DNA of 64,000 nucleotides, taken from assembly GCF_002854065.1 (NCBI RefSeq), contig NZ_CP024147.1; one strand, written 5' to 3'. Positions 2,990-42,520 of this stretch are shown here, one piece after another. Source of the stretch: Escherichia coli (GTDB lineage: Bacteria; Pseudomonadota; Gammaproteobacteria; Enterobacterales; Enterobacteriaceae). Every line of letters starts with the position of its first letter. Position 1 is the stretch's first letter. A program made the position numbers and the translations under genes. A model generated the notes under the pieces. That model did no database searches, had not been told where the DNA came from, and was given only the letters and a program-made list of their open reading frames with translations.

Positions 2990-3111
2990 GCAGGTGAATG
3001 CAACGTCAAGCGATGGGCGTTGCGCTCCATATTGTCTTACTTCCTTTTTTGAATTACTGCATAGCACAATTGATTCGTACGACGCCGACTTTGATGAGTC
3101 GGCTTTTTTTT
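2990..3111 (+). ncRNA. fnrS: FnrS small regulatory RNA (FNR-activated, Hfq-dependent)
   Basis: Sequence GCAGGTGAATGCAACGTCAAGCGATGGGCG...CTTACTTCCTTTTTTGAATTACTGCATAGC... ending in hairpin GCCGACTttgatgAGTCGGC plus T8; lies in the zntB-dbpA intergenic region, where fnrS maps in K-12. Confidence 0.8.
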
Positions 3112-5984: not shown

Positions 5985-6500
<516 letters not shown>

Positions 6501-6525
6501 TTAGATCAAAGGAGGAATAATAAGC

Positions 6526-6551
6526 AGAAAAAGCCCGCCATAACAGCGGGC
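6526..6551 (-). terminator. Rho-independent terminator downstream of ompN
   Basis: GCCCGC...GCGGGC hairpin followed by a U-run on the minus strand immediately after the ompN stop. Confidence 0.7.
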
Positions 6552-6559
6552 AGGAGGAT

Positions 6560-7693
6560 TTAGAACTGATAAACCAGACCTAAAGCGACAATATCATCGG
6601 TAGAGATGCCGTTGGCAGCGTAGAAACTGTCATCTTCATCCAACAGGTTGATTTTATAGTCAACATAAGTGGACATGTTTTTATTGAAATAGTAAGTCGC
6701 GCCAACATCGGCGTATTTAACCAGATCTTTATCATCAACACCTGCCGGGTTGTCTGCACCACCGGCAGCGTGCAGGTCACGGCCTTTAGACATCAGGAAA
6801 GAGACTGCCGGACGCAGACCAAAATCAAACTGGTACTGTGCAGTGACTTCAAAGTTCTGGGTTTTGTTCGCAACTGCATAATCGCTGTCGCCAAACGGGG
6901 TCATATTACGCGTTTCTGAATACATGGTTGCCAGGTAAATATTGTTAGCATCGTATTTTAGCCCAGCAGTCCACGCGTCTGCTTTATCACCACCCGCCGC
7001 AGTATGGTTAACCTGGTCATTGGTGCGGTCAGAAGAGGTGTATGCCGCACCAGCGCTAAAGCCCATGCCTAAATCATATGTTGTGGAAAGACCCCAGCCG
7101 TCACCGTTTTCATGGCGAACATCACGTCCGTTGTTGGTGCCTTCCTGACCATTACTGGCACCTTCGTTGTTACCTTGATACTGCACCGCGAAGTTCAGAC
7201 CATTTACCAGACCGAAGAAATCAGTATTACGATAAGTCGCGACGCCATTGGCACGACCAGTCATAAAGTTGTCTGCATTGGTATAAGAGTCACCGCCAAA
7301 TTCAGGCAGCATATCGGTCCAGCCTTCGATGTCGTACATTACGCCATAATTACGTCCGTAATCGAAAGAACCGTAATCTGCAAATTTCAGTCCGGCAAAT
7401 GCCAGACGGGTCCATGACTGGTTTTTTGAAGATTCAGTGTTGTTTGCCTGAATATTGTATTCCCATTGACCGTAGCCAGTAAGTTGATCGTTAATTTGGG
7501 TTTCGCCTTTAAAACCCAGACGCGCATAGCTCTGGTCGCCATCTTTCGCTGAATTATCAGAAAAATAATGCAGGCCATCAACTTTGCCATACAGATCTAA
7601 TTTGTTGCCGTCTTTATTATAAACTTCGGCTGCATGTGCAGCACCTGCGGCGATCAGGGCAGGAATTAAAAGTGCCAGTACTTTGCTTTTCAT
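6560..7693 (-). CDS. ompN: Outer membrane porin OmpN
   Basis: 377-aa ORF with signal peptide [21 protein letters not shown], porin beta-barrel features and C-terminal ...LVYQF. Confidence 0.9.
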
Positions 7694-7920
7694 TGAATAA
7701 ATCCTTTAGTTATTTTATTTGCCTTTTATCCCCATTTCGGGGAGTGAAAACATCCTAAAGGAGAAGTTCAGTTAGCCGATAAATATCATTTGTTACGCCT
7801 TAAGTAAAACCTTAATCAAATAATTCCTCTGAAATGATAATAAGTCTGGTGAATGTATCGAAGATAATACATACAAAATAAAAATTATACTTTTTATTTT
7901 CTATACGTTATTCTGCGCGG

Positions 7921-8029
7921 GTTATATGCCTTTATTGTCACAGATTTTATTTTCTGTTGGGCCATTGCATTGCCACTGATTTTCCAACATATAAAAAGAC
8001 AAGCCCGAACAGTCGTCCGGGCTTTTTTT
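7921..8029 (+). ncRNA. micC: MicC small RNA (Hfq-dependent repressor of ompC)
   Basis: Sequence GTTATATGCCTTTATTGTCACAGATTTTATTTTCTGTTGGGCC... ending in GCCCGAACAGTCGTCCGGGC plus T7; sits in the ompN-pfo intergenic region, divergent from ompN. Confidence 0.85.
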
Positions 8030-8057
8030 AGAATTGGATAATCCTTATCCAGAGCAT

Positions 8058-11000
8058 TTAATCGGTGTTGCTTTTTTCCGCTTTTCCGGCCATTTGTGCC
8101 AGGAAGTCATAGCGTTTTTGCAAATCAGCTGCAGCATCTTTCCATAACTGTTCTGCCACTTCTGGCTGCTGCGAATTCAGACGACGGAAACGTTGCTCGT
8201 GAAGTAACGTTTCTTCCAGTGCTTCTGACGGCGGGCGTGAATCCAGCGCCAGCGGCAGTTTGCCTTCATCGGCACGACGCGGATCGAAGCGATATAGCGG
8301 CCAGAAGCCGGTAGCTGTGAGTTGGCGCATCTGGTCATGGCTGAGTGCCAGATCGTAACCATGCTCTTCACACGGGCTATAAGCAATGATCAGCGATGGT
8401 CCCGGATACGCTTCCGCTTCCTGAATCGCTTTCACCGTCTGGTTCAGTTGCGCGCCGAGAGAAATCTGCGCCACATAAACATGACCGTACATCATCATAC
8501 TGACGCCAAGATCTTTACGCGCTTTACGTTTGCCGTGCTCGCCAAATTTAGTTACTGCACCCAGCGGTGTCGCTTTCGACGCCTGACCACCGGTGTTGGA
8601 ATAGCATTGCGTATCCAGCACCAGAATGTTGACGTTTTCCGTCAAACTCAATACATGATCCAGACCGCCAAAGCCGATATCGTAAGCCCAGCCGTCGCCA
8701 CCAATCAGCCAGATTGATTTTTCTACCAGTGCATCTGCGTCACGCAGCAGTTCATGTGCTTCGGCAACATCGTTGAGTTGCTGGCGTAAAGCTGCGACCT
8801 GTTCTCGACGAACCTCTGGCGTAGCGTCTGATTTCAACGCCGTCAGTAATTCCGCCGGGATTTTATCGGCAAATTGATCCAGCAGACGCAGCACGCGGAC
8901 ACGGTGTTGATCGACCGTCAGGCGGAAACCAAGGCCAAATTCGGCATTATCTTCAAATAGAGAGTTCGCCCATGCCGGCCCACGACCGTTGGCATCGGTG
9001 GTATACGGTGTAGAGGGCAGGTTACCGCCATAAATTGAAGAACAGCCGGTGGCGTTAGCGATCAACATCCGGTCGCCATAGAGCTGAGTCAGCAATTTAA
9101 TATACGGCGTCTCGCCACAACCGGAGCAAGCACCGGAATATTCAAACAGCGGTGTAATCAGCTGCGATGTACGAATATCAATACGTTCCAGTTTGCTACG
9201 GTCTATTTCTGGCAGGTTGAGGAAGAAATCGTAATTGATTTTCTCTTCTTCGACATGTTCCAGGCGAGACATCATATTGATGGCTTTAATCTCTGGATTC
9301 TGACGGTCTTTCGCCGGGCAAACTTCGACGCACAGGTTACAACCGGTGCAATCTTCCGGTGCCACCTGCAAGACATATTTCTGCCCGCGCATATCACGCG
9401 ATTTCACATCCAGCGAATGCAGGCTGGCAGGGGCGTTTTCCATCGCTTCAGGCGGCACCACTTTTGCGCGAATAGCTGAGTGTGGGCAAGCGGCAACGCA
9501 GTGGTTACATTGGGTACAGAGTTCCTCTTTCCAGATGGGGATCTCTTCGGCGATATTGCGTTTTTCCCAGCGTGTAGTGCCCATCGGCCAGGTGCCGTCT
9601 GGCGGCAGCGCCGAAACGGGGAGGGCATCACCAAGCCCGGCGAGCATCGCAGCGGTTACGGTTTTCACGAAATCAGGGGCGGCATCGGAAACCACTGGCG
9701 GTCGATTGGCGCTGTGCGGATTTACCGGTTGCAACGGAACTTCTTCTACGGATTCACGCGCCAGCGCCAGAGCCTGCCAGTTGCGCTCCACCAGATCCTG
9801 GCCTTTGCTACTGTAACTTTTGGCAATCGCACCCTGCAATTCTGCGAGGGCGCTATCGCCAGGCAGAATTTGCGTCAGATGGAAAAAAGCCATCTGCATG
9901 ACGGTATTAATACGGGCCGCCAGGCCACATTCGCGGGCGATTTTCGCTGCGTTAATCACATAGAAGCACGCTTTTTTCTGGTTTAACACGGCCTGAACTT
10001 CTTGCGGCAAGCGCGACCACACTTCATCTGCGCTGTACGGCGTGTTGAGCAGGAAAATGCCGCCAGGTTTTAAACGCTCAGCCATCTGATATTTATCGAT
10101 AAACTGCAACTGGTGGCAGCCAACAAAATCAGCCTGGGAAATGAGATAAGCGGAACGAATCGGCTGTTCGCTCACTCGAAGGTGAGAAACCGTCAGACCG
10201 CCCGCCTTTTTGGAGTCGTAAACAAAATAGCCCTGTGCGTACCACGGCGTGGAATTACCGATAATCTTGATATTGTTTTTGGTCGCGGAAACGCTGCCAT
10301 CACTACCAAGGCCATAAAACAAGGCTTCCAGTTTCGCCGAGTTTGGCAGGGTGTTTTCCGGCAACGGCAGTGACAGATTGGTCACATCATCGTAAATACC
10401 AACCGTAAAGCGCGCTTTCGGTTTAGCCGCGTTGAGCTCGGCAAATACCGCCAGTACACAGTCCGGGCCAAATTCTTTGGATGAAAGACCATAGCGCCCA
10501 CCAATGACACGGGGCAGAGTTTCGCGCTCGCCATTATTAAAGGCTTCTGCCAGTGCGGTCATTACATCCAGATAGAGCGGTTCTGCCTGGGCACCGGGTT
10601 CTTTGGTTCTGTCCAGTACCGCTACGCTGCGTACGGATCCCGGCAGAGCTTGCAGCAAGTGTTTGGCGGAGAAGGGACGGTACAGGCGAACTTTCAGCAC
10701 GCCAACTTTTTCGCCACGGGTTAGCAATTCATCAACCACTTCTTCACAGGTGCCAATGGCAGAGCCCATCAGGATAATCACCCGTTCCGCTTGCGGATGC
10801 CCGTAATATTCAAACGGCTGATACTGACGACCTGTCGCGGCAGAGAAATCATTCATCGCCTGTTCAACATGGTCATAGACCGCGTTGTACCATGGGTTGG
10901 TGGCTTCGCGAGACTGGAAATAAGTGTCAGGATTGGCGGACGTACCGCGGATCACCGGATGTTCCGGGTTGAGCGCCCGGGCGCGATGAGCATCAATTTC

Positions 11001-11582
11001 GGCCTGCGGCATGAGATCAAGAATAGTGTCATCGGCCAGCGGGACAATTTTATTGATTTCGTGGGACGTACGGAAACCATCAAAGAAATGAATAAATGGC
11101 ACGCGGCTTTTCAGCGTCGCGATGTGCGAAATGAGAGCAAAGTCTTGCGCTTCCTGGACGTTTGCCGCACACAACATCGCGCAACCCGTCTGGCGCACCG
11201 CCATGACGTCGGAATGATCGCCAAAAATAGAGAGTGCATGTGTGGCAACGGTACGTGCCGCTACATGCAGGACAAACGGTGTGAGTTCGCCTGCCAGTTT
11301 GTACAGCGTCGGGATCATCAGCAGCAAACCCTGCGATGACGTAAACGATGTTGAAAGGGCACCCGTCTGCAAAGCGCCATGCACGGTAGCGATAGCACCC
11401 GCTTCCGACTGCATTTCAACCACGCGTGGTGTGTCTCCCCAAACGTTCTTCAAGCCGTTTCCGGCCCAGGCATCAGCCTGTTCTGCCATCGTGGAACTGG
11501 GGGTAATAGGGTAGATGGCGATAACTTCACTGGTGCGAAACGCCACCGAAGCAACCGCGCCATTACCGTCAATAGTAATCAT
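8058..11582 (-). CDS. pfo: Pyruvate:flavodoxin oxidoreductase (PFOR family)
   Basis: 1174-aa ORF with 4Fe-4S ferredoxin cysteine clusters (CTQCNHCVAACP, CTGCNLCVEVCP) and a TPP-binding domain; recognised as YdbK. Confidence 0.92.
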   Translation of the reverse strand: MITIDGNGAVASVAFRTSEVIAIYPITPSSTMAEQADAWAGNGLKNVWGDTPRVVEMQSEAGAIATVHGALQTGALSTSFTSSQGLLLMIPTLYKLAGELTPFVLHVAARTVATHALSIFGDHSDVMAVRQTGCAMLCAANVQEAQDFALISHIATLKSRVPFIHFFDGFRTSHEINKIVPLADDTILDLMPQAEIDAHRARALNPEHPVIRGTSANPDTYFQSREATNPWYNAVYDHVEQAMNDFSAATGRQYQPFEYYGHPQAERVIILMGSAIGTCEEVVDELLTRGEKVGVLKVRLYRPFSAKHLLQALPGSVRSVAVLDRTKEPGAQAEPLYLDVMTALAEAFNNGERETLPRVIGGRYGLSSKEFGPDCVLAVFAELNAAKPKARFTVGIYDDVTNLSLPLPENTLPNSAKLEALFYGLGSDGSVSATKNNIKIIGNSTPWYAQGYFVYDSKKAGGLTVSHLRVSEQPIRSAYLISQADFVGCHQLQFIDKYQMAERLKPGGIFLLNTPYSADEVWSRLPQEVQAVLNQKKACFYVINAAKIARECGLAARINTVMQMAFFHLTQILPGDSALAELQGAIAKSYSSKGQDLVERNWQALALARESVEEVPLQPVNPHSANRPPVVSDAAPDFVKTVTAAMLAGLGDALPVSALPPDGTWPMGTTRWEKRNIAEEIPIWKEELCTQCNHCVAACPHSAIRAKVVPPEAMENAPASLHSLDVKSRDMRGQKYVLQVAPEDCTGCNLCVEVCPAKDRQNPEIKAINMMSRLEHVEEEKINYDFFLNLPEIDRSKLERIDIRTSQLITPLFEYSGACSGCGETPYIKLLTQLYGDRMLIANATGCSSIYGGNLPSTPYTTDANGRGPAWANSLFEDNAEFGLGFRLTVDQHRVRVLRLLDQFADKIPAELLTALKSDATPEVRREQVAALRQQLNDVAEAHELLRDADALVEKSIWLIGGDGWAYDIGFGGLDHVLSLTENVNILVLDTQCYSNTGGQASKATPLGAVTKFGEHGKRKARKDLGVSMMMYGHVYVAQISLGAQLNQTVKAIQEAEAYPGPSLIIAYSPCEEHGYDLALSHDQMRQLTATGFWPLYRFDPRRADEGKLPLALDSRPPSEALEETLLHEQRFRRLNSQQPEVAEQLWKDAAADLQKRYDFLAQMAGKAEKSNTD

Positions 11583-11855
11583 ATGACACCCTTACATTGC
11601 GCAAATGAGGGGCGCACGAAATTGCTGCGCGCCCAGTAGTAATCTTTCAATTTTAGCAAATGGCTTTCTTCTGCATTTTCGCTTTTGTGTCCCCCACATC
11701 AGAGTAATGAATGTTTTGATCAAACAGAGGGCAAAAAAATAGCCATAAAAAAGTAAAAATGCGGGGCAACGCGCAGGACAGCTCTCGACGCCGCCCTCTG
11801 TGCTGCCTATTATTTATGGCGGTGTCGTTTGGCTTGAAGATCAGAGGAAGAAGAG

Positions 11856-17001: not shown

Positions 17002-17408
17002 ATTATAGTTGGCTACAAAATGTATCTATTAATGATCTTTTACAGTATTTAAACTGACGTTAGCATGCTTAATTACCGTGGGTATTTCTACAAAAACCTT
17101 ATATATCCTTCCCTTAAATAACAAATCATTACCAATATATATGTAATCACAAAATATATATGCAGCGTCAATGAATTATTAGTGTGTTTTTGTTTTTTGT
17201 CGTTAATTTTTAGATTGAAGTGAGTTTTTTGTGGAATATAATTCCATCAACTGTTTTTTTGTATGCTTTTACTTGCCTGATTTTAATATTGATTTTGTGA
17301 ATTATATAAGCATTTCTTTATTGCTTATTTCACTATGAATATTTACTACGATTTATCTTCAAATTCTGCATGGCTTGTTACGCACGGTCTAGATCTAAGG
17401 AATTTTAT

Positions 17409-20400
17409 ATGCAAAGGAAAAAATTATTGTCTGTTTGTGTTGCCATGGCGTTAAGTAGCCAGACATGGGCTGCGGATACTTCAATACCCGACTCAACCGA
17501 AAAAACACGTAAGTCCAGTAAGATAACATGTCCGGCAAATATTCATTCCCTGAGCAAAGAGCAGCTAGAAAATTTATCCGCGGAGTGCAGAGAAAATAAA
17601 GATAGTGCAGTTTTACCATGGGCAGCTGCAGGTCTTGCTGCAGTAGCTACGGGAATTGCTATATATACCTTAAGTGACGATGACAATCACCACCATAATA
17701 ACTCCCCAGTTCCGGATGATGGCGGTGATACGCCAGTTCCGCCAGACGACGGCGGTGATACGCCGGTTCCGCCAGATGACGGCGGTGATACGCCGGTTCC
17801 GCCAGATGACGGCGGTGATACGCCAGTTCCGCCAGATGACGGCGGTGATACGCCAGTTCCGCCAGATGACGGCGATGATACGCCGGTTCCGCCAGATGAC
17901 GGCGGTGATACGCCAGTTCCGCCAGATGACGGCGGTGATACGCCAGTTCCGCCAGATGACGGCGGTGATACGCCGGTTCCACCAGATGATGGCGGTGATA
18001 CGCCAGTTCCAGACGACGGCGGTGATACGCCTGTTCCGCCAGACGATGGTGGCGATACCCCGGTTAAACACGATCCTGTCGTCTATAAAAATGACGTAAC
18101 CTGGGATCAGGACGCGAAAACCGTCAAAATTCGCGAAACCACCTTTACCTACAGCCAAAATGCCGATGGGAGTTACACCTTAACCGCGCCTGATGGCCTG
18201 ACGACGATAGTCAAGGGCTGGACAGTCCATGACGACAGCAACACCGTCATCTTTGATGGCGTAAATACGGCAGGTGGCATCACCTGGAGCTACGACGATG
18301 ATGGGCTCATCCATATCACTAAAGAGGCCGGTGTCGTTGTTGATGGCACAACCGGAACTGCGATTGATTTTGGTAATGCGATCATCACCGATCAGGGCGG
18401 CAATACGGCGCTGAATGGCGGTACTGTCATGACGGTTGAGGGTGACAACATCACCCTCAACAACGACGGTAAAACGACCGCCATCGGCGAGGGTTCGGTC
18501 GTTGGTATCCTTACTGGTGACGATATCACTATCAATAACAACGGCGAGACGGAAGTTGACGGCGGTACCGCAGTAATCATCAATGGCGATAATGCTACGC
18601 TGAACACTGCGGGCGACTCGACCATCACCAATGGTGGTACGGGTAGCCTTATCAATGGCGATAATGCGCGGGTCGATAATCAAGGTACCATGAGCGTTGA
18701 CGGTGAGAATTCCACTGGCTCGAAAATTGTCGGTGACGGTGCCACCATCAAACAGGAAGGCGACTTATACGTAAGCGGTGGTGCGCACGGTATTGACGTT
18801 GACGGCAATGATACGTTCGTTAGCAACAAAGGTAATATTACGGTCATCGAAGATAACTCTATTGGCATGCTGCTTGATGGTGATGGCGTCAGCGTGATCA
18901 ACATGGGCGACCTCAATGTTGGTCAGGCCGCAGCGGGTGAAAATGCCATTGGCATTCAGATCGACGGTGATAATGCGACATTTGTTAACGTTGGTGATAT
19001 TTCCGCGACCAATGCCGGAACCGGTGTCAGCGTTGCTGGGGATAAAGCTAATATTTCACTCGCGGGTGGGTTAGACGTTGGGGATTTCTCCACCGGTCTT
19101 GATGTCTCTGGCAATAATAACAACATGACGCTGGCGACTTATGAGCTGAATGTGACAGGGCAAAAAGCGACGGGTGTTAATGTTTCGGGTGATGGCAATA
19201 CGATTGAAATCGCAGGCAGCATTCTGGTTGATAAAGATCAGAAAGCCGATAATGCGCAACCTTACTTCTTTAATCCCTCAACCGGCGTAAATATCAGCGG
19301 TAATAACAATGACGTCACGCTGGATGGTCAGTTAACCGTTGTTGCTGATAGCGAAACCACTACGCGTTCCTATGCAAGTTACGACGGTGCTCAGGAGCAC
19401 ATTGCGGGTATTGTTATTGCTGGCGATGACAATACCTTCACGCTTAATGGCGGTGTCCATTTTGTCGGTGAAAAAAATGTCATGGATGATGGCTCAAAAC
19501 CTGCCGCATCTCGTCGTGGTATCGGAGATACACCGCTTATGAGCGTTGATGGGCATTCCTCAGTCTACCTCAATGGTGAGTCAACCATCAGCGGTGAGTT
19601 CCCGCTGGGTTTCGAAAATCTCATTCAACTGAGTAATGGCGCGGAGCTGGAGATTGGCGCTGACGCAACGTTTGATATGAGTGATGTGGATTCTTTCACT
19701 TATTATTATCGTGTAGCGTTATCCACTATTAGTATTGATTATGGTGCGAAGGCGACAAACAACGGTGAAGTGGAACTGAAAAATATCGGTTTTGCGGCTG
19801 CCTGGAATAAAGATTCAACGGTAATCAATAACGGATCCATTGGCCTGGCGATGTACGATTTTGGTACCGACCCGGCACCAAAAGTCTTTGACGTTGAATA
19901 CGGTGGGATTGGCGTTAACAATGGTACCATGACCACCAAAATGATGAATCAGCACAGTGTGCTGAATTATCCGGCAGAGTGGAACTTGTCTGATGGTACC
20001 TCTTTCAATAACAAGGCATTAGGGCTGACAGGTATGCTTGCCAGCTACTCGTCATCCATTCTGAACGGCGAAACGGGCATTATTGATATGTATGGCCGTG
20101 GCAGTGTAGGGATGCTAGCCATCGATAAATCAACCGCGGATAACGAAGGGCAAATCACCCTGGATACGCTGTGGGTTGATGAAAATGATGAAACATCGCT
20201 GCGTAATAATGTTGCAAATAGCACGGCGAAAGATTTCGGTGTGGGAATGGCTTCAGGTACCGATGCCTATAATGGGGCATTAACTAAAGCCACGGCAACC
20301 AACCACGAGAATGGTGTGATTACTGTCTACAACGCCGGTGCGGGGATGGCGGCGTATGGGAATACTAATACGGTCATTAACCAGGGAACCATCAACCTGG

Positions 20401-23273
20401 AGAAAAATGAAAATTACAACGATTCTCTCGGTGTGAATAAACTCGTCGGCATGGCGGTTTATCACGAAGGCACCGCCATTAATGACCAGACAGGCGTAAT
20501 CAACATTAACGCGGAAAATGGTCAGGCATTCTATAACGATGGCACTGGGCTTATTATCAACTATGGCACAATTTGTACCTTTGGCGTTTGCCAGGGGGCC
20601 GATGAATATAATCCAACGGATAATTATATTGCCGATTTATATGATCATGGCGATGTATTAAGTTCTGCGGGTGAGACCGTATTATTATCGTCAGGTGCGA
20701 TTATCAACGGGGATGTCACCAGTGCGGGTGCTGTTAAAAATGGAACGATCAGGATACTCGAAAATGGTGCGCTGGTTAACGAGTCGAGCGGAACCATTAG
20801 CTCAGCCATCGTCGTGAATGAAGGCGGTGCGTTAACCAATGAAGGTGTATTGAACACGGTGACTCTGGAAGGAGGAACCTTCAATAACAACGGAACGCTT
20901 AATGACGTCGTAAAAATTGAGAAAAACAGCAACGCGGTAATTAATAACACCGGTTCCCTGTCAACTTTACAACTTCACGATGGTACGGTGAATAACAGCG
21001 GTATTGCGTCGGCGCGCGTTAACGCTCAGGGCGATGCGGTATTCAATAACCTTGCAGGCGGCGAGGCGCGTAAAGGCGCGATTCTCTATAACTCTGCGGT
21101 AGTGAATAACGCGGGTACCTGGAAAATGGGTTATCAGGATGAAAACAACAATGCCGGGACGCTGGATATTGACGATAAGTCAACGTTCAACAACAGCGGC
21201 AAACTCATCCTTGATAACAGCAAAAACGCCATTCGCTTCCAGGGCAGCAATGCTAACGCCACGTTATATAACACCGGTGAAATGACGCTGGATGCCGCAT
21301 TAGGTGCGGGCGCTATTCACTACGACGATGGCGCCAGCCAGTTTATTAACAAGGGCGTGGTGGATGCGAAAGTCACCGTGGCGGTAAGTACTGCCGGTGC
21401 GACAGAAAGCGATGCCTTCTTGTGGAACCAGGATGGCGGGGTAATTAACTTCGATAAAGACAACGCCAGCGCGGTTAAATTCACCCACAACAACTATGTT
21501 GCTCTCAACGATGGTGTAATGAACATCAGCGGCAACAACGCCGTGGCGATGGAAGGCGATAAAAACGCACAGCTGGTTAACAACGGTGTTATCAATCTCG
21601 GTACCGAAGGCACCACCGATACCGGATTGACTGGTATGCAACTGGATGCCAATGCCACCGCCGATGCGGTAATTGAGAACAACGGCACGATCAATATTTT
21701 TGCTAACGACTCGTTTGCGTTCAGCGTACTGGGCACAGAAGGTCATATCGTTAACAACGGTACGGTGGTGATTGCCGACGGCGTGACTGGTTCGGGGTTG
21801 ATTAAGCAGGGCGACAGCGTGAATGTGGAAGGGGTGAACGGCAACAGCGGTAACAATACCGAAGTGCATTACACCGACTACACGTTGCCGGACATGCCAA
21901 GCTCTTACACCACTTCACCTTTCAGTGAAACGACTGATAGCGGTAGTAGCGATGGCAGCAGTAACAATCTTAACGGCTATATCGTCGGTACCAACGTTGA
22001 TGGCAGCGCCGGTAAACTGAAGGTCAACAACGCCAGCATGAATGGTGTCGGGATCAACACCGGTTTCGCCGCCGGTACGGCAGACACCACGGTCAGTTTC
22101 GACAACGTGGTGGAAGGCATCAACCTGACCGACGCCGATGCCATCACCTCAACGTCCGTGGTATGGACCGCCAAAGGCAGCACCGATGCCAGCGGCAACG
22201 TTGACGTCATCATGAGCAAAAACGCCTACACCGATGTGGCGACCGATGCTTCGGTGAACGATGTGGCGAAGGTACTGGATGCGGGTTACACCAATAACGA
22301 GCTGTATACCAGCCTGAACGTGGGCACCACTGCTGAACTGAATAGCGCCCTGAAGCAGGTGAGCGGTAGCCAGGCGACCACGGTATTCCGTGAAGCGCGT
22401 GTGTTAAGCAACCGCTTCAGCATGCTGGCGGATGCCGCGCCGAAGGTGGGTAACGGTCTGGCGTTCAACGTTGTTGCGAAAGGCGATCCACGTGCCGAGT
22501 TAGGTAATAATACCGAATACGACATGCTGGCATTGCGTAAAACCATCGACCTGAGCGAAAGCCAGACGATGAGTCTGGAGTACGGTATCGCTCGTCTCGA
22601 TGGTGATGGTGCGCAGAAAGCGGGTGGTAATGGCGTCACAGGTGGTTATAGCCAGTTCTTTGGCCTGAAACATCAGATGTCCTTCGACAACGGCATGAAC
22701 TGGAATAACGCATTGCGTTATGACGTTCACAACCTTGACAGTAGCCGTTCGATTGCATTTAGCAACACAAACAAAACGGCTGATACCGACGTGAAGCAGC
22801 AGTACCTGGAGTTCCGCAGCGAAGGGGCGAAGACTTTCGAACCGAGCGAAGGACTGAAGGTTACGCCATATGCGGGTGTAAAACTGCGTCACTCGCTGGA
22901 AGGCGGCTATCAGGAGCGCAATGCCGGAGACTTTAACCTGAGCATGAACAGCGGCAGCGAAACGGCGGTGGACAGCATCGTCGGGCTGAAACTGGACTAC
23001 GCAGGGAAAGGCGGCTGGAGCGCGAATGCGACGCTGGAAGGCGGGCCGAACCTGAGCTACAGCAAGAGCCAGCGCACGGCAAGCCTTGCAGGGGCAGGCA
23101 GCCAGCACTTTAACGTCGATGACGGTCAGAAGGGCGGCGGTATCAACAGCCTGGCGAGCGTCGGCGTGAAGTACAGTAGCAAAGAAAGTTCGCTGAATCT
23201 GGATGCGTATCACTGGAAAGAGGACGGCATCAGCGACAAAGGCGTGATGCTGAACTTTAAGAAAACGTTCTAA
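17409..23273 (+). CDS. ydbA: Autotransporter (type Va) adhesin-like protein YdbA, apparently intact
   Basis: About 1954 aa: signal peptide MQRKKLLSVCVAMALSSQTWA, PPDDGGDTPV tandem repeats, long Gly/Asn/Thr-rich beta-helix passenger, C-terminal beta-barrel ending ...MLNFKKTF. Confidence 0.85.
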   Translation: MQRKKLLSVCVAMALSSQTWAADTSIPDSTEKTRKSSKITCPANIHSLSKEQLENLSAECRENKDSAVLPWAAAGLAAVATGIAIYTLSDDDNHHHNNSPVPDDGGDTPVPPDDGGDTPVPPDDGGDTPVPPDDGGDTPVPPDDGGDTPVPPDDGDDTPVPPDDGGDTPVPPDDGGDTPVPPDDGGDTPVPPDDGGDTPVPDDGGDTPVPPDDGGDTPVKHDPVVYKNDVTWDQDAKTVKIRETTFTYSQNADGSYTLTAPDGLTTIVKGWTVHDDSNTVIFDGVNTAGGITWSYDDDGLIHITKEAGVVVDGTTGTAIDFGNAIITDQGGNTALNGGTVMTVEGDNITLNNDGKTTAIGEGSVVGILTGDDITINNNGETEVDGGTAVIINGDNATLNTAGDSTITNGGTGSLINGDNARVDNQGTMSVDGENSTGSKIVGDGATIKQEGDLYVSGGAHGIDVDGNDTFVSNKGNITVIEDNSIGMLLDGDGVSVINMGDLNVGQAAAGENAIGIQIDGDNATFVNVGDISATNAGTGVSVAGDKANISLAGGLDVGDFSTGLDVSGNNNNMTLATYELNVTGQKATGVNVSGDGNTIEIAGSILVDKDQKADNAQPYFFNPSTGVNISGNNNDVTLDGQLTVVADSETTTRSYASYDGAQEHIAGIVIAGDDNTFTLNGGVHFVGEKNVMDDGSKPAASRRGIGDTPLMSVDGHSSVYLNGESTISGEFPLGFENLIQLSNGAELEIGADATFDMSDVDSFTYYYRVALSTISIDYGAKATNNGEVELKNIGFAAAWNKDSTVINNGSIGLAMYDFGTDPAPKVFDVEYGGIGVNNGTMTTKMMNQHSVLNYPAEWNLSDGTSFNNKALGLTGMLASYSSSILNGETGIIDMYGRGSVGMLAIDKSTADNEGQITLDTLWVDENDETSLRNNVANSTAKDFGVGMASGTDAYNGALTKATATNHENGVITVYNAGAGMAAYGNTNTVINQGTINLEKNENYNDSLGVNKLVGMAVYHEGTAINDQTGVININAENGQAFYNDGTGLIINYGTICTFGVCQGADEYNPTDNYIADLYDHGDVLSSAGETVLLSSGAIINGDVTSAGAVKNGTIRILENGALVNESSGTISSAIVVNEGGALTNEGVLNTVTLEGGTFNNNGTLNDVVKIEKNSNAVINNTGSLSTLQLHDGTVNNSGIASARVNAQGDAVFNNLAGGEARKGAILYNSAVVNNAGTWKMGYQDENNNAGTLDIDDKSTFNNSGKLILDNSKNAIRFQGSNANATLYNTGEMTLDAALGAGAIHYDDGASQFINKGVVDAKVTVAVSTAGATESDAFLWNQDGGVINFDKDNASAVKFTHNNYVALNDGVMNISGNNAVAMEGDKNAQLVNNGVINLGTEGTTDTGLTGMQLDANATADAVIENNGTINIFANDSFAFSVLGTEGHIVNNGTVVIADGVTGSGLIKQGDSVNVEGVNGNSGNNTEVHYTDYTLPDMPSSYTTSPFSETTDSGSSDGSSNNLNGYIVGTNVDGSAGKLKVNNASMNGVGINTGFAAGTADTTVSFDNVVEGINLTDADAITSTSVVWTAKGSTDASGNVDVIMSKNAYTDVATDASVNDVAKVLDAGYTNNELYTSLNVGTTAELNSALKQVSGSQATTVFREARVLSNRFSMLADAAPKVGNGLAFNVVAKGDPRAELGNNTEYDMLALRKTIDLSESQTMSLEYGIARLDGDGAQKAGGNGVTGGYSQFFGLKHQMSFDNGMNWNNALRYDVHNLDSSRSIAFSNTNKTADTDVKQQYLEFRSEGAKTFEPSEGLKVTPYAGVKLRHSLEGGYQERNAGDFNLSMNSGSETAVDSIVGLKLDYAGKGGWSANATLEGGPNLSYSKSQRTASLAGAGSQHFNVDDGQKGGGINSLASVGVKYSSKESSLNLDAYHWKEDGISDKGVMLNFKKTF
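17706..18064 (+). repeat. About 12 tandem copies of a 30-bp repeat (one 27-bp unit) encoding PPDDGGDTPV within ydbA
   Basis: Near-identical head-to-tail units GATGACGGCGGTGATACGCCAGTTCCGCCA with occasional wobble changes; one unit encodes GDDTPV. The mirror-image ORFs in the track here are repeat artefacts. Confidence 0.9.
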
Positions 23274-24399: not shown

Positions 24400-24416
24400 A
24401 ATGGCATGGAGTGCAT

Positions 24417-25715
24417 ATGTTTAAGCCCAGGATTTGCAGCTGGATAGGTTTACTTCCCCTGTTTATGCTGAGTCTTCCAGTACAGGCGGAACTTCGATGC
24501 GTTGCAAATGCAGTTGATATTGAACCTTTTTTTTCTGCGGCTACCGCTGAAGATAAACAACAAGTTGAACAAGCTATCAACAGTAGCGTGAATCTTGTCC
24601 CCTTCGGTTTATCTGCATCGGACTGGAAAGTGCATCGTGGCGATTTAGTGGTAGAAGGTAATATAGAGAGTAATCAAAAATTGATTGTTCTTGGCAATTT
24701 GACAGTCAAAGGTAATATTTCCACTTTCTCTCTTTCTAATCCATGGGTTATTCTCGGTAACGTGACGGCAACGAATATAGTTACGGATTCACCACTGTTA
24801 ATTACCGGTTCGATAAATGCAAGTGGACTGGTATTTATCGACTCATATTACGATAATCCGTCTACGATTAAGGGGAGTATTAATGCGCGCGGGATATTTA
24901 TCAATGACATAATTGCACCTGTTGTTGCGTCTTCGACAAATAGTGAATTCATGGTCCGTGCGAGTGACAAAAATGACACTGAAAATGTCAAAAAAGCGCT
25001 GATGATAATAAATCCTGATGCATATTATTGGGGTCTAATAAATGATGAAGATGCTCTGAAAGAAATTTTTAAGCGAAGCAATATTCGCATGGCAGGGAAT
25101 GTCTGTAATCAGATGAAAAAAGAAGCGCTGTTTCGCCCTAAGCCTTCTCCTGAGTTAGTGCAGGAATTGCAAATGCTGGATGAAGGCAACGTTGCTGCAT
25201 TTGAAGGACGAGATATTGCGACATTTGATCTTGCCATAATGCGAACTCTCCCAAGGCTTAAAGGAATTTCAGCTAACCTACGCAAACAACTTATTAATAG
25301 CAATGATGGACAAACGATTGCAAGTATGGCGAGATATATGCCTGACAATGAGATTCTGGAGTTGACCGATCAGCAATTGGGTTACCAGCCTGTTGTTCTG
25401 GGGTTGCTCGACCGTGAACCGCTCTCTGTCGAAATAATGACGCGAATGAGTCATCTACCTGATGGTGTCGGTCCGTTGAATCTTGCGCTACGTGAAAATC
25501 TCCCTCTGGATATCGTCATGACTCTGGCGAAAAGAGATTGGGATATGATCATTCAGGAGCTTTATAAAGATGCGTGGTTATTGCCCGAATCCATTATTGA
25601 TGGCTATATCCGCAGTGATGATTCCTCTATTCGTCAGGTCGGTGCTGGAGGACAACTCACCTACAATCAGGCAATGCAGTTGGCGAACGATTCATCAAAC
25701 GATGTTGTCACAAGC
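24417..25715 (+). pseudogene. ydbD: ydbD N-terminal fragment (disrupted by IS1)
   Basis: Signal-peptide ORF MFKPRICSWIGLLPLFMLSLPVQA... runs into IS1 at 25716 and stops 27 nt inside it; the two halves total about 770 codons, matching the K-12 YdbD length as I recall it. Confidence 0.8.
25707..25715. repeat. Left 9-bp target-site duplication GTCACAAGC of IS1 copy 2
   Basis: Identical 9-mer immediately flanks both ends of the IS1 (25707..25715 and 26484..26492). Confidence 0.9.
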
Positions 25716-25770
25716 GGTGATGCTGCCAACTTACTGATTTAGTGTATGATGGTGTTTTTGAGGTGCTCCA

Positions 25771-26046
25771 GTGGCTTCTGTTTCTATCAGCTGTCCCTCC
25801 TGTTCAGCTACTGACGGGGTGGTGCGTAACGGCAAAAGCACTGCCGGACATCAGCGCTATCTCTGCTCTCACTGCCGTAAAACATGGCAACTGCAGTTCA
25901 CTTACACCGCTTCTCAACCCGGTACGCACCAGAAAATCATTGATATGGCCATGAATGGCGTTGGATGCCGGGCAACCGCCCGCATTATGGGCGTTGGCCT
26001 CAACACGATTTTCCGCCATTTAAAAAACTCAGGCCGCAGTCGGTAA
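25771..26046 (+). CDS. insA: IS1 InsA
   Basis: 91-aa ORF identical to insA of copy 1. Confidence 0.93.
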
Positions 26047-26468
26047 CCTCGCGCATACAGCCGGGCAGTGACGTCATCGTCTGCGCGGAAATGGACGAAC
26101 AGTGGGGATACGTCGGGGCTAAATCGCGCCAGCGCTGGCTGTTTTACGCGTATGACAGTCTCCGGAAGACGGTTGTTGCGCACGTATTCGGTGAACGCAC
26201 TATGGCGACGCTGGGGCGTCTTATGAGCCTGCTGTCACCCTTTGACGTGGTGATATGGATGACGGATGGCTGGCCGCTGTATGAATCCCGCCTGAAGGGA
26301 AAGCTGCACGTAATCAGCAAGCGATATACGCAGCGAATTGAGCGGCATAACCTGAATCTGAGGCAGCACCTGGCACGGCTGGGACGGAAGTCGCTGTCGT
26401 TCTCAAAATCGGTGGAGCTGCATGACAAAGTCATCGGGCATTATCTGAACATAAAACACTATCAATAA
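25965..26468 (+). CDS. insB: IS1 InsB reading frame (InsAB' by -1 frameshift)
   Basis: 167-aa ORF; differs from copy 1 by one residue (S vs R). Confidence 0.9.
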
Positions 26469-26483
26469 GTTGGAGTCATTACC

Positions 26484-26492
26484 GTCACAAGC
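26484..26492. repeat. Right 9-bp target-site duplication GTCACAAGC of IS1 copy 2
   Basis: Direct repeat of 25707..25715. Confidence 0.9.
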
Positions 26493-27500
26493 TTAGCGTT
26501 AAAGCTGGCAGAGATGAAACACCATGGTCAATTGTTGCGGATGACGCCACAAGAGAGTGACAAAATAGCAGTATATTTATACCAAAAATTCGAGAATGAC
26601 GATGATCTAATAGGTGCGTTATTTTTAGCGTTGCCAGATAACTTACAGTTTAATTTTGTTAAAAGGATGGAGAAAAAATCCCCTGCCTACTTTTGCTGTC
26701 GGGATATGCAGATAATTCACTCTGACGCTGCTTTACAACGGTTATTGACACGTTTCAACGATCCTGAGGGGTGGAGTAATCTGGCGAAAAATCAGTATCT
26801 GAGCACGTCGATGAAACAAAAAATTTGGCAACGTGCTTTATCGCATCGGAAAAATAATCCCAAAGCAGATTCAGATGCATATGAAACCAGCGCTGATATG
26901 ATTTTGTCTGAGCTTATCAGCTACGGTGAAGTTGATGACCAGATGCTATTAAATGCCACCTCTCTGATACGTTCGGACGACTGGGACTTTTTAGAGAGAG
27001 CATTAATTAGTTGGGATAATTTACCCGCTGTTGTTCTCAAGGAATTACAGCAAAACACGCCACGCAATGATATTTGGGCGAAGTTTTTTCTGAGGCAGGA
27101 AAACAGTTCCCGTGCGCAGGTTAACGAAGCGTTACGTGTTTATTATGCACTAGACCCCGATGCGTTAGCACAACTGGATGTACTGGCAAAACAACCGGAT
27201 CGTATATGGTGGAGTACACTGGCGAAAAGCAATCTCACATTTTTCAAGTTCGGCGCACTTAACAACCGCCACACACCGCCTGCGGTACTGGCGGCAGAAA
27301 TTGATCCCGAGTGGTGGATTGTGGCGATGAATAATCCCCGTTTTCCAGTTGATGTATTAAAGGCGAGGCTGAAACGTGATCCTTTGCTGGCGTTAGAGCT
27401 TGTTAACCCTGAACTGGATTTAGTTCGCCAGCTGGCGCTTAACGGTAAGACGCGCGCAATACGGGAACAAGCGATGAGAAAACTTGATGAGTTGTATTGA
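26484..27500 (+). pseudogene. ydbD: ydbD C-terminal fragment (disrupted by IS1)
   Basis: Open frame continues from the duplicated target site to the stop at 27500 (ORF track shows it from an internal Met at 26514). Confidence 0.8.
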
Positions 27501-41492: not shown

Positions 41493-41557
41493 AAAGAAAA
41501 CGCCTGTACTAAAACCGACCCGTGGTACAGGCGAAGAATACGGGTCTACATCGGAAG
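41493..41557 (-). ncRNA. rydC: RydC small RNA (Hfq-binding)
   Basis: Minus strand reads CTTCCGATGTAGACCCGTATTCTTCGCCTGTACCACGGGTCGGTTTTAGTACAGGCGTTTTCTTT, recalled as RydC with its pseudoknot-forming repeats; lies between cybB and ydcA. Confidence 0.75.
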
Positions 41558-41972: not shown

Positions 41973-42122
<150 letters not shown>

Positions 42123-42520
42123 AGCCTTTCTCCTTGCCGGATGGCGGGTAAGAGGCTAACATCTGAATTGCTTGGTTCATTCGTTGGCCTCGGTTGATAG
42201 AAATATCGGTCGGGGCCTTCGTCTTTCTGATTCCCGGTTAGCCTGAAAACAGAAAGTCTCAGGCACCCGTGAGCATCCTATGTGGTTTCCTTAGGGACGA
42301 AAATAATCACCTGACGAAATTGCGTGCTGTTTTCCAGAATTTTTCGTCATTCGGGTTAGCCAGTTTAACCATTCGTTACTCTCTTCATTCCAATGGCATT
42401 AATCTTCTCTGCAATAATTGTTGTAAAAATGTGACGCAAAGAGGCTTTTAGTCGTAAGTAATTACCGTCAAATGCCGATGACTATCTATCAGGAGTAAAC
42501 CTGGACGAGAGACAACGGTA

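Follow-up and report, generated by a model that had tools for sequence, protein, structure and literature searches.

An intact ydbA-locus gene of Escherichia coli with a variable acidic repeat linker probably encodes an autotransporter of the BigA/YdbA family

Introduction

The gene ydbA of Escherichia coli is known as a pseudogene of strain K-12, and an apparently unbroken copy at the same locus raises the question of whether it still encodes a working protein and, if it does, of what kind. We addressed this question in a stretch of 64,000 nucleotides of E. coli DNA (RefSeq assembly GCF_002854065.1, contig NZ_CP024147.1; hereafter the window), in which the ydbA-locus gene carries an array of 30-bp tandem repeats near its 5' end. 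An earlier note on this DNA had proposed an intact giant autotransporter with a repeat-encoded linker. The evidence presented here makes it highly probable, at roughly 85%, that the gene is an unbroken allele of the ydbA locus kept by selection, and that it encodes a classical (type Va) autotransporter of the BigA/YdbA family that most likely serves as a surface adhesin.

This kind of gene is already known. Full-length ydbA has been reported in ~42% of phylogroup A strains (2016 paper, PMC4951805), and intact alleles are common and already annotated in many genomes.

Results

An uninterrupted frame with an autotransporter barrel

The open reading frames of the window include a single uninterrupted + strand frame at 17370..23273, and translation from the ATG at 17409 gave 1954 codons and a stop, with 0 internal stops, ending at 23273. 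The same start is used by RefSeq for this gene in XJ34, LH50-c, A16 and ETEC6335. The earlier note had described one open frame of about this length, to be abandoned if a frameshift or stop appeared on careful re-translation; none was found, and 17409-23273 is open throughout. A 1954-codon frame with twelve near-identical 30-mers cannot have arisen by chance. Antisense open reading frames within the gene (for example 17670-18158 and 22500-23213) were set aside as by-products of a long stop-poor frame.

The encoded protein consists, in order, of a signal peptide, a cysteine loop, a hydrophobic segment, an Asp/His patch, the repeat linker, a BigA_N domain, a beta-helix, a BigA_beta domain, a helical linker and a barrel (Table 1). 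At the C-terminus, the Pfam autotransporter domain PF03797 matched residues 1729-1925 (E = 9.2e-18). For residues 1485-1954, an AlphaFold2 model from an alignment of 13 sequences (mean predicted local distance difference test score, pLDDT, 72) showed a beta-sandwich, a helical linker and ~12 long strands. When this model was compared with the PDB by Foldseek, EstA, AaaA, EspP, NalP, BrkA and Hbp came out on top (E 4e-9 to 1e-5), with a template modelling score of 0.69 on target for NalP, and the terminal aromatic residue F1954 was invariant in 12 homologues. Pfam, the model and Foldseek agree on an autotransporter translocator, which the earlier note had predicted and had made dependent on how the C-terminus would model; solved translocators were the best PDB matches. 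The N-terminus has the features of a signal peptide, as was also proposed, in a pattern kept across the family homologues. A PF03797 barrel, a Sec signal peptide recognised by inspection of the sequence, a helical linker and a terminal aromatic together place the protein among the type Va autotransporters.

The passenger could be assigned in part. In an AlphaFold2 model of residues 1-400, built on an alignment of homologues, BigA_N and the first rungs of a beta-helix were predicted with pLDDT 85-96, and the helix matched the UpaB and pertactin passengers. A sequence periodicity of 24-25 residues was significant in residues 305-560 only. The long beta-helix passenger claimed in the earlier note therefore stands for residues 305-560, on the modelled start and the periodicity, whereas the remainder is probably of the same fold. 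A Pfam scan of residues 1-1200 detected BigA_N alone, and AIDA or pertactin-type passenger repeats were not found at the sequence level; the protein lacks the passenger repeats, detectable in sequence, of the AIDA-I/Ag43-type self-associating autotransporters. Searches of PDB sequences with the passenger, with the C-terminal 554 residues and with a 12-sequence family profile returned no match, so no solved relative is detectable by sequence. UpaB of uropathogenic E. coli (PDB 6bea) has no BigA_N, BigA_beta, N-terminal hydrophobic module or repeat linker, and shows no similarity to YdbA at the sequence level. Outside the N-terminal loop, the sole cysteines of the mature protein are a closely spaced passenger pair, C1056...C1061 (20574-20591). 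Autotransporter secretion tolerates small disulfide loops only, and the close spacing of this pair fits that tolerance.

With regard to family, NCBIfam returned auto_BigA as the sole match, at 1077 bits against a cutoff of 3400, so that the protein is a relative of BigA and not BigA itself. The BigA/YdbA family is indicated by BigA_N following a Pro-rich stretch, BigA_beta preceding the translocator, and the ydbA chromosomal slot. The C-terminal 640 residues align end to end with the model for Salmonella BigA (NCBIfam NF033178, 'autotransporter adhesin BigA'), and the Pfam domains BigA_N and BigA_beta are common to both proteins. The chromosomal locus of BigA differs from that of ydbA. In the literature found, BigA is listed as an adhesin or a pseudogene, and no functional characterisation of it was found there; Celik et al. 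2012 labelled its passenger 'AIDA-I-like', on other grounds (PMC3419190).

Relation to the K-12 pseudogene

The gene lies downstream of ydbH-ynbE-ydbL and upstream of pdxI(ydbC)-ydbD-ynbA, and the slot between ydbL and pdxI(ydbC) is the ydbA position, which O157 and other strains share. In a K-12-lineage genome the neighbours of the ydbA slot are paaY and pdxI, with the paa operon upstream; the paa/fea/tynA island found upstream of ydbA in K-12 is present neither in this window nor in O157. As the earlier note had stated, the K-12-lineage gene is split by IS2 and IS30 (ydbA_1/IS2/IS30/ydbA_2), and removal of these insertion sequences (IS) restores a 6024-nt stop-free frame.

The two copies share the slot upstream of pdxI(ydbC)-ydbD-ynbA, the order of domains and the N-terminal module. 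However, only the last 1862 nt align well (88% DNA identity), while protein identity over the N-terminal 840 residues is no more than 37-48%. The window has an intact copy and K-12 an interrupted one; in place of a tandem array the K-12 linker has a short, degenerate run of Pro and Asp; and the upstream non-coding regions (window 17002-17408 compared with 1902-2231 of the K-12-lineage sequence L008) could not be aligned. The two allele families probably have different promoters. The identity as YdbA proposed for this gene is supported by the slot and the family domains, but the gene is not the K-12 allele made whole: it belongs to a deeply divergent allele family.

Table 1. Coordinates of the ydbA-locus gene, its parts and its upstream signals in the window
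Feature	Position	Strand	Basis
Candidate sigma-70 promoter TTGAAG, 16 nt spacer, TATAAT	17215..17242	+	Consensus match 10/12
Shine-Dalgarno-like AAGGAA	17397..17402	+	6 nt before ATG 17409; read from sequence
ydbA-locus coding sequence, uninterrupted, 1954 codons + stop	17409..23273	+	Translation; RefSeq start shared
Sec-type signal peptide, residues 1-21	17409..17471	+	Sequence inspection: MQRKK, core LLSVCVAMAL, SSQTWA then AD
Conserved cysteine loop C41-P42 ... C60	17529..17588	+	C41, P42, C60 invariant in 20 diverse homologues
Hydrophobic Ala/Gly-rich segment, residues 67-88, AVLPWAAAGLAAVATGIAIYTL	17607..17672	+	Most hydrophobic 19-mer of the protein
Asp/His-rich patch SDDDNHHHNNS	17673..17705	+	Sequence; similar D/N/G/H-rich stretch in homologues
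Variable-number tandem repeat, 12 units of 30 bp (unit 10 = 27 bp) encoding (P)PDDGGDTPV	17715..18065	+	Tandem Repeats Finder, unit dissection
BigA_N small beta-barrel (PF25784), residues 224-304	18078..18320	+	Pfam E = 6.9e-32, full model length; AlphaFold2 pLDDT 85-96
Passenger, residues 305-1522	18321..21974	+	Right-handed beta-helix: first part shown, remainder inferred
BigA_beta sandwich (PF25783), residues 1523-1606	21975..22226	+	Pfam E = 7.2e-24, full model length; AlphaFold2 beta strands
Helical linker before barrel, residues 1608-1676	22230..22436	+	AlphaFold2 helices at model residues 124-192
Autotransporter beta-barrel translocator, residues 1684-1954, ends ...LNFKKTF	22458..23270	+	PF03797, AlphaFold2, Foldseek

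Alleles, inactivation and selection

This allele family, counted where at least 80% of its length is covered, occurs in 367 of 5426 complete E. coli genomes, and most of the 367 are O157:H7 or O55:H7. In the O157:H7/O55:H7 allele the codon equivalent to residue 1062 (window 20592) is TAG in place of CAG, which splits the gene and explains its annotation as two coding sequences in these genomes. Full-length E. coli versions in the protein database number more than 100, with 94-98% identity. The copies of XJ34, LH50-c, A16 and ETEC6335 lie at the same locus, are annotated as 'autotransporter domain-containing protein', share 96.6-97.2% DNA identity and have 1941-1954 residues, with a different repeat number in some. 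In TUM13936 (NZ_CP134358.1, locus region 6001-11835) translation gave a 5835-nt frame without an internal stop, which RefSeq annotates as a truncated pseudogene and a separate coding sequence, showing that the annotation of these long genes is inconsistent.

Comparison of the alleles in 300-nt bins revealed a block-wise mosaic, in which some stretches have 0 mismatches while those next to them diverge by 5-12%, and the closest partner changes from bin to bin (alleles L001, L002 and L004-L007), with flanks that are nearly identical among the alleles compared. Between alleles, 110-185 codons differ, with ~4:1 synonymous to nonsynonymous differences. The block-wise pattern and this ratio indicate recombination under purifying selection and not decay. 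Conservation at the level of domains extends across the Enterobacterales.

A repeat array that varies in number and stays in frame

Tandem Repeats Finder reported one array at 17715-18065 (period 30, 11.8 copies, 91% matches, score 562), the only one in the whole 64-kb window with a score of at least 80. Dissection gave 12 units, starting at 17715, 17745, ... 18042. Unit 10 (17985) is 27 bp long and has one Pro codon fewer, unit 6 (17865) is GGCGATGAT and encodes GDD in place of GGD, and the remaining differences between units are nearly all synonymous third-position changes. Every detail of the array given in the earlier note (about 12 near-identical units near the N-terminus, one of 27 bp, one encoding GDD) was found to be right, as was the acidic, proline-rich PPDDGGDTPV linker, which follows from the frame-preserving translation of the repeats.

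The number of units differs widely between close relatives. In 120 close homologues, the stretch from the hydrophobic segment to BigA_N measured 28-157 residues, in steps of 10, corresponding to ~2-15 units, while the rest of the protein was exactly 1824 residues long in 105 of the 120. Alleles at least 94% identical span the whole range of 2-15 units. In complete genomes of O157:H7/O55:H7, an 801-nt query spanned 651 nt in most and 708, 594, 561 or 504 nt in others, equivalent to ~7, 9, 5, 4 and 2 units, or about five length classes. The presence of several classes inside this group indicates that copy number changes on short time scales, in line with the variability that had been predicted, and rules out an array fixed at 7 units in O157. 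Since its units are near-identical, run head to tail and vary in number among close relatives, the array is a variable-number tandem repeat. Literature on ydbA as a tandem-repeat or multiple-locus variable-number tandem-repeat analysis locus, and on the O157 Vhec loci, yielded nothing usable.

On/off phase variation calls for a unit not divisible by three, whereas the units here are 30 and 27 bp and the alleles that differ in copy number all stay in frame. Since the units are near-identical and all multiples of three bases, slippage or unequal recombination would add or remove 10 residues at a time with the frame kept, and the outcome is length polymorphism rather than on/off switching. In-frame repeat polymorphism is known from pertactin of Bordetella (regions 1 and 2, with GGxxP and PQP repeats) and other autotransporters; in contrast to the pertactin repeats, which are loops of the beta-helix, those described here form a long N-terminal tether, of 10-residue units in up to 15 copies. 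Independently, the array of Escherichia albertii uses a 9-residue unit, PPDDGGNVT, and its protein lengths differ in 9-residue steps.

We also observed a protein, P0010 (on a 4.46-Mb contig), in which the ydbA N-terminus up to the first repeat unit is fused to PF24421/PF24489 sequence resembling a phage tail-fibre protein. This suggests a prophage-associated rearrangement at the repeat in some strain.

A conserved N-terminal module and an acidic linker

Ahead of the repeats lies a small module, a cysteine loop followed by a ~20-residue Ala/Gly-rich hydrophobic segment, which was found in 24/24 family members examined. The spacing between the cysteines is 19 in 23/24 members and 21 in one (P0141). 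The hydrophobic segment, on which the earlier note is silent, exceeds the core of the signal peptide in hydrophobicity; within it W71 is nearly invariant and G75 invariant among genera at only 30-60% identity. Among alleles, variation is also lowest in the first 300 nt of the gene. AlphaFold2 gave short helices in the loop (pLDDT ~62) and no confident structure for residues 67-88 (pLDDT 26-39). By a crude position-independent sum on the Hessa scale, segments of this type have a borderline insertion energy of +0.4 to +4.1 kcal/mol.

A search of the N-terminal region against 1.84 billion representative proteins found only 65 relatives, and the named sources are all Enterobacterales (E. albertii, Citrobacter, [Enterobacter] lignolyticus, Rahnella and Superficieibacter). 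A homologue query with the N-terminal 364 residues returned 13 short fragments only, so that a full-length query was required. No paper mentioning the cysteine-loop/hydrophobic module was found in the literature searched.

The linker that follows contains 37 Asp, 0 Glu and 1 Lys in 127 residues. Across the family, linkers measure 24-169 residues and are always acidic and nearly free of Lys/Arg: the Lys/Arg fraction is at most 0.04 in 22/23, and 0.11 in one fragment (P0193). These properties hold for repeat units that differ by lineage (PPDDGGDTPV, PPDDGGNVT, DDGGNTP, PDPT and DNGG). The length of the linker is unrelated to that of the passenger across family members, which makes a fixed geometry unlikely.

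Upstream region, flanks and neighbouring features

The gap between ydbL and ydbA is 407 bp and AT-rich (GC 38-41%). A promoter scan upstream of ydbA gave fewer sites than shuffled sequences did, and the candidate promoter in Table 1 is a lead only.

The flanks of the window are 100% identical to those of the closest genome, strain 100416 (NZ_CM128593.1, The Gambia; locus region 9001-10021), in which ydbA stops after its first 250 nt and gives way to IS1 and then to the 3' part of ynbC. The rest of ydbA, with pdxI, ydbD, ynbA and ynbB, has been lost from this strain through an IS1-bounded deletion. In the window itself an IS1 (768 bp, with terminal inverted repeats) lies inside ydbD at 25716-26483, flanked by the 9-bp target-site duplication GTCACAAGC at 25707-25715 and 26484-26492, and splits ydbD into open reading frames at 24411-25742 and 26514-27500.

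Rfam matches above the gathering score were FnrS, MicC, RydC and the sok antitoxin RNA of a hok/sok-type locus, at 2990-3107, 7918-8038, 41494-41557 (-) and 42117-42268 (-). These small RNAs are ordinary E. coli content.

Discussion

An intact frame under purifying selection, a translocator that matches solved structures and the domains of the BigA/YdbA family are what would be expected of a maintained autotransporter, and its working can be pictured from the family as follows. The signal peptide would carry the protein across the inner membrane, the barrel would insert in the outer membrane, and the passenger (BigA_beta, the long beta-helix and the BigA_N barrel) would be threaded out C-terminus first, so that the N-terminal end would become the tip farthest from the cell. 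There the 30-bp array would provide an acidic, proline-rich spacer, probably extended and disordered, joining the N-terminal module to the tip of the passenger; its length may change by 10-residue units through slippage or unequal recombination, with the frame unbroken. Surface display, adhesion and any role of linker length we infer.

Several points weigh against this reading. The literature search turned up no expression, secretion or adhesion data for this protein or any family member, nor any functional study of the protein, which bears out the view of YdbA as uncharacterised. A beta-helix is supported for residues 305-560 only, in a passenger of ~1200 residues, and the score falls far under the NCBIfam cutoff for BigA, the protein not being BigA itself. 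The gene is often inactivated in E. coli, by IS2 and IS30 in K-12, by CAG to TAG in O157, and by IS1 insertion or deletion elsewhere, and is therefore dispensable in many niches. Finally, Sec translocation might in principle be halted by residues 67-88, an outcome that autotransporter export would not allow; if the autotransporter route works, this segment has to pass the inner membrane. Topologies in which it anchors the protein in the inner membrane, with the signal peptide cleaved or uncleaved, were rejected: linker and barrel would then stay in the cytoplasm, which cannot be squared with the conservation of an outer-membrane barrel.

What the N-terminal module and the linker do within such an autotransporter admits of more than one answer. 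It is possible, though we think it unlikely, that the module is the working end, a tethered tip element in which the hydrophobic helix beside the disulfide loop inserts into membranes or self-associates and the repeat tunes its reach. The conservation of C41, P42, C60, G75 and, nearly, W71 across distant genera speaks for this, as do the presence of the module in every member examined, the low variability of the first 300 nt and the hydrophobicity of the segment, the highest in the protein. Loose precedents exist: VacA is an autotransporter with an N-terminal GxxxG hydrophobic segment that inserts in membranes, and NalP and SphB1 have an N-terminal lipid anchor. These proteins have a membrane-active or membrane-anchoring element at the extreme N-terminus of the passenger, as YdbA would on this reading; they are not homologous to it, and in YdbA the element comes after a disulfide loop, with a long acidic linker between it and the passenger. 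However, the low pLDDT lends the segment no structural support, and linkers of 24-169 residues across the family, and of 28-157 within one allele family, with no relation to passenger length, imply that a precise reach is not required.

An equally tentative alternative is that the linker is mainly an aid to export, an acidic, Lys/Arg-poor stretch that prevents stop-transfer by the hydrophobic segment and maintains an unfolded N-terminus in the periplasm; linker length would then be nearly neutral and drift by slippage. The membrane potential helps acidic residues across the inner membrane, and basic residues retain segments in the cytoplasm. The linker composition, the low Lys/Arg fraction kept despite lineage-specific units, the borderline insertion energy and the broad range of lengths tolerated are consistent with this proposal, but it leaves the presence of the hydrophobic segment itself unexplained, and the energy scale was applied as a crude sum.

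More speculative still is a combination of the two, which we regard as rather improbable. The BigA/YdbA family may have an undescribed N-terminal device, made up of a C-P-x17-C disulfide loop and an Ala/Gly-rich helix of marginal hydrophobicity, which an acidic, nearly Lys/Arg-free tether holds at the membrane-distal tip; tandem repeats encode this tether in E. coli and E. albertii. Such a helix would enter a target membrane or that of its own cell, or pair with helices on cells nearby. The number of repeats would adjust its reach, and the tether would let it cross the inner membrane without being halted there. A version in which the linker lets the helix reach back to its own outer membrane was rejected as a general model, on linker lengths down to 24-28 residues and the absence of scaling with the passenger.

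There is little likelihood that the frame is open but the gene silent, or a decaying remnant without current function. Repeated independent inactivation in other lineages and the AT-rich upstream region, which may be silenced, would fit a remnant, but the ~4:1 ratio of synonymous to nonsynonymous differences, the more than 100 distinct full-length alleles with exactly 1824 non-linker residues and the domain-level conservation across Enterobacterales argue against it.

Least probable of all, and contradicted by the order of the domains, is a stalk whose length sets the distance of the adhesin from the cell surface, as the earlier note had supposed in suggesting that the repeats tune display length: copy number does vary from 2 to 15 units and Pro-rich acidic sequence is expected to be extended, but passengers of type Va autotransporters attach to the barrel through their C-terminus, and a linker N-terminal to BigA_N and the beta-helix, with the barrel C-terminal, lies at the distal tip and not at the base, where a change in length would move only the ~70-residue N-terminal module. 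An inverted topology, the one arrangement that would rescue the stalk, is made unlikely by the C-terminal PF03797 barrel.

Taken together, the results confirm that ydbA, although a pseudogene in K-12, is alive and under constraint in other E. coli. To what was known of it, this analysis adds a picture of its variation, with deeply divergent allele families at one locus, block-wise recombination and in-frame change of repeat number. As the latter changes even within the O157:H7 clone, it could serve as a typing marker. A hydrophobic helix placed behind the signal peptide is not obviously tolerated by the standard autotransporter export route, and explaining the N-terminal module could reveal something new about autotransporter export or about how adhesins engage surfaces.

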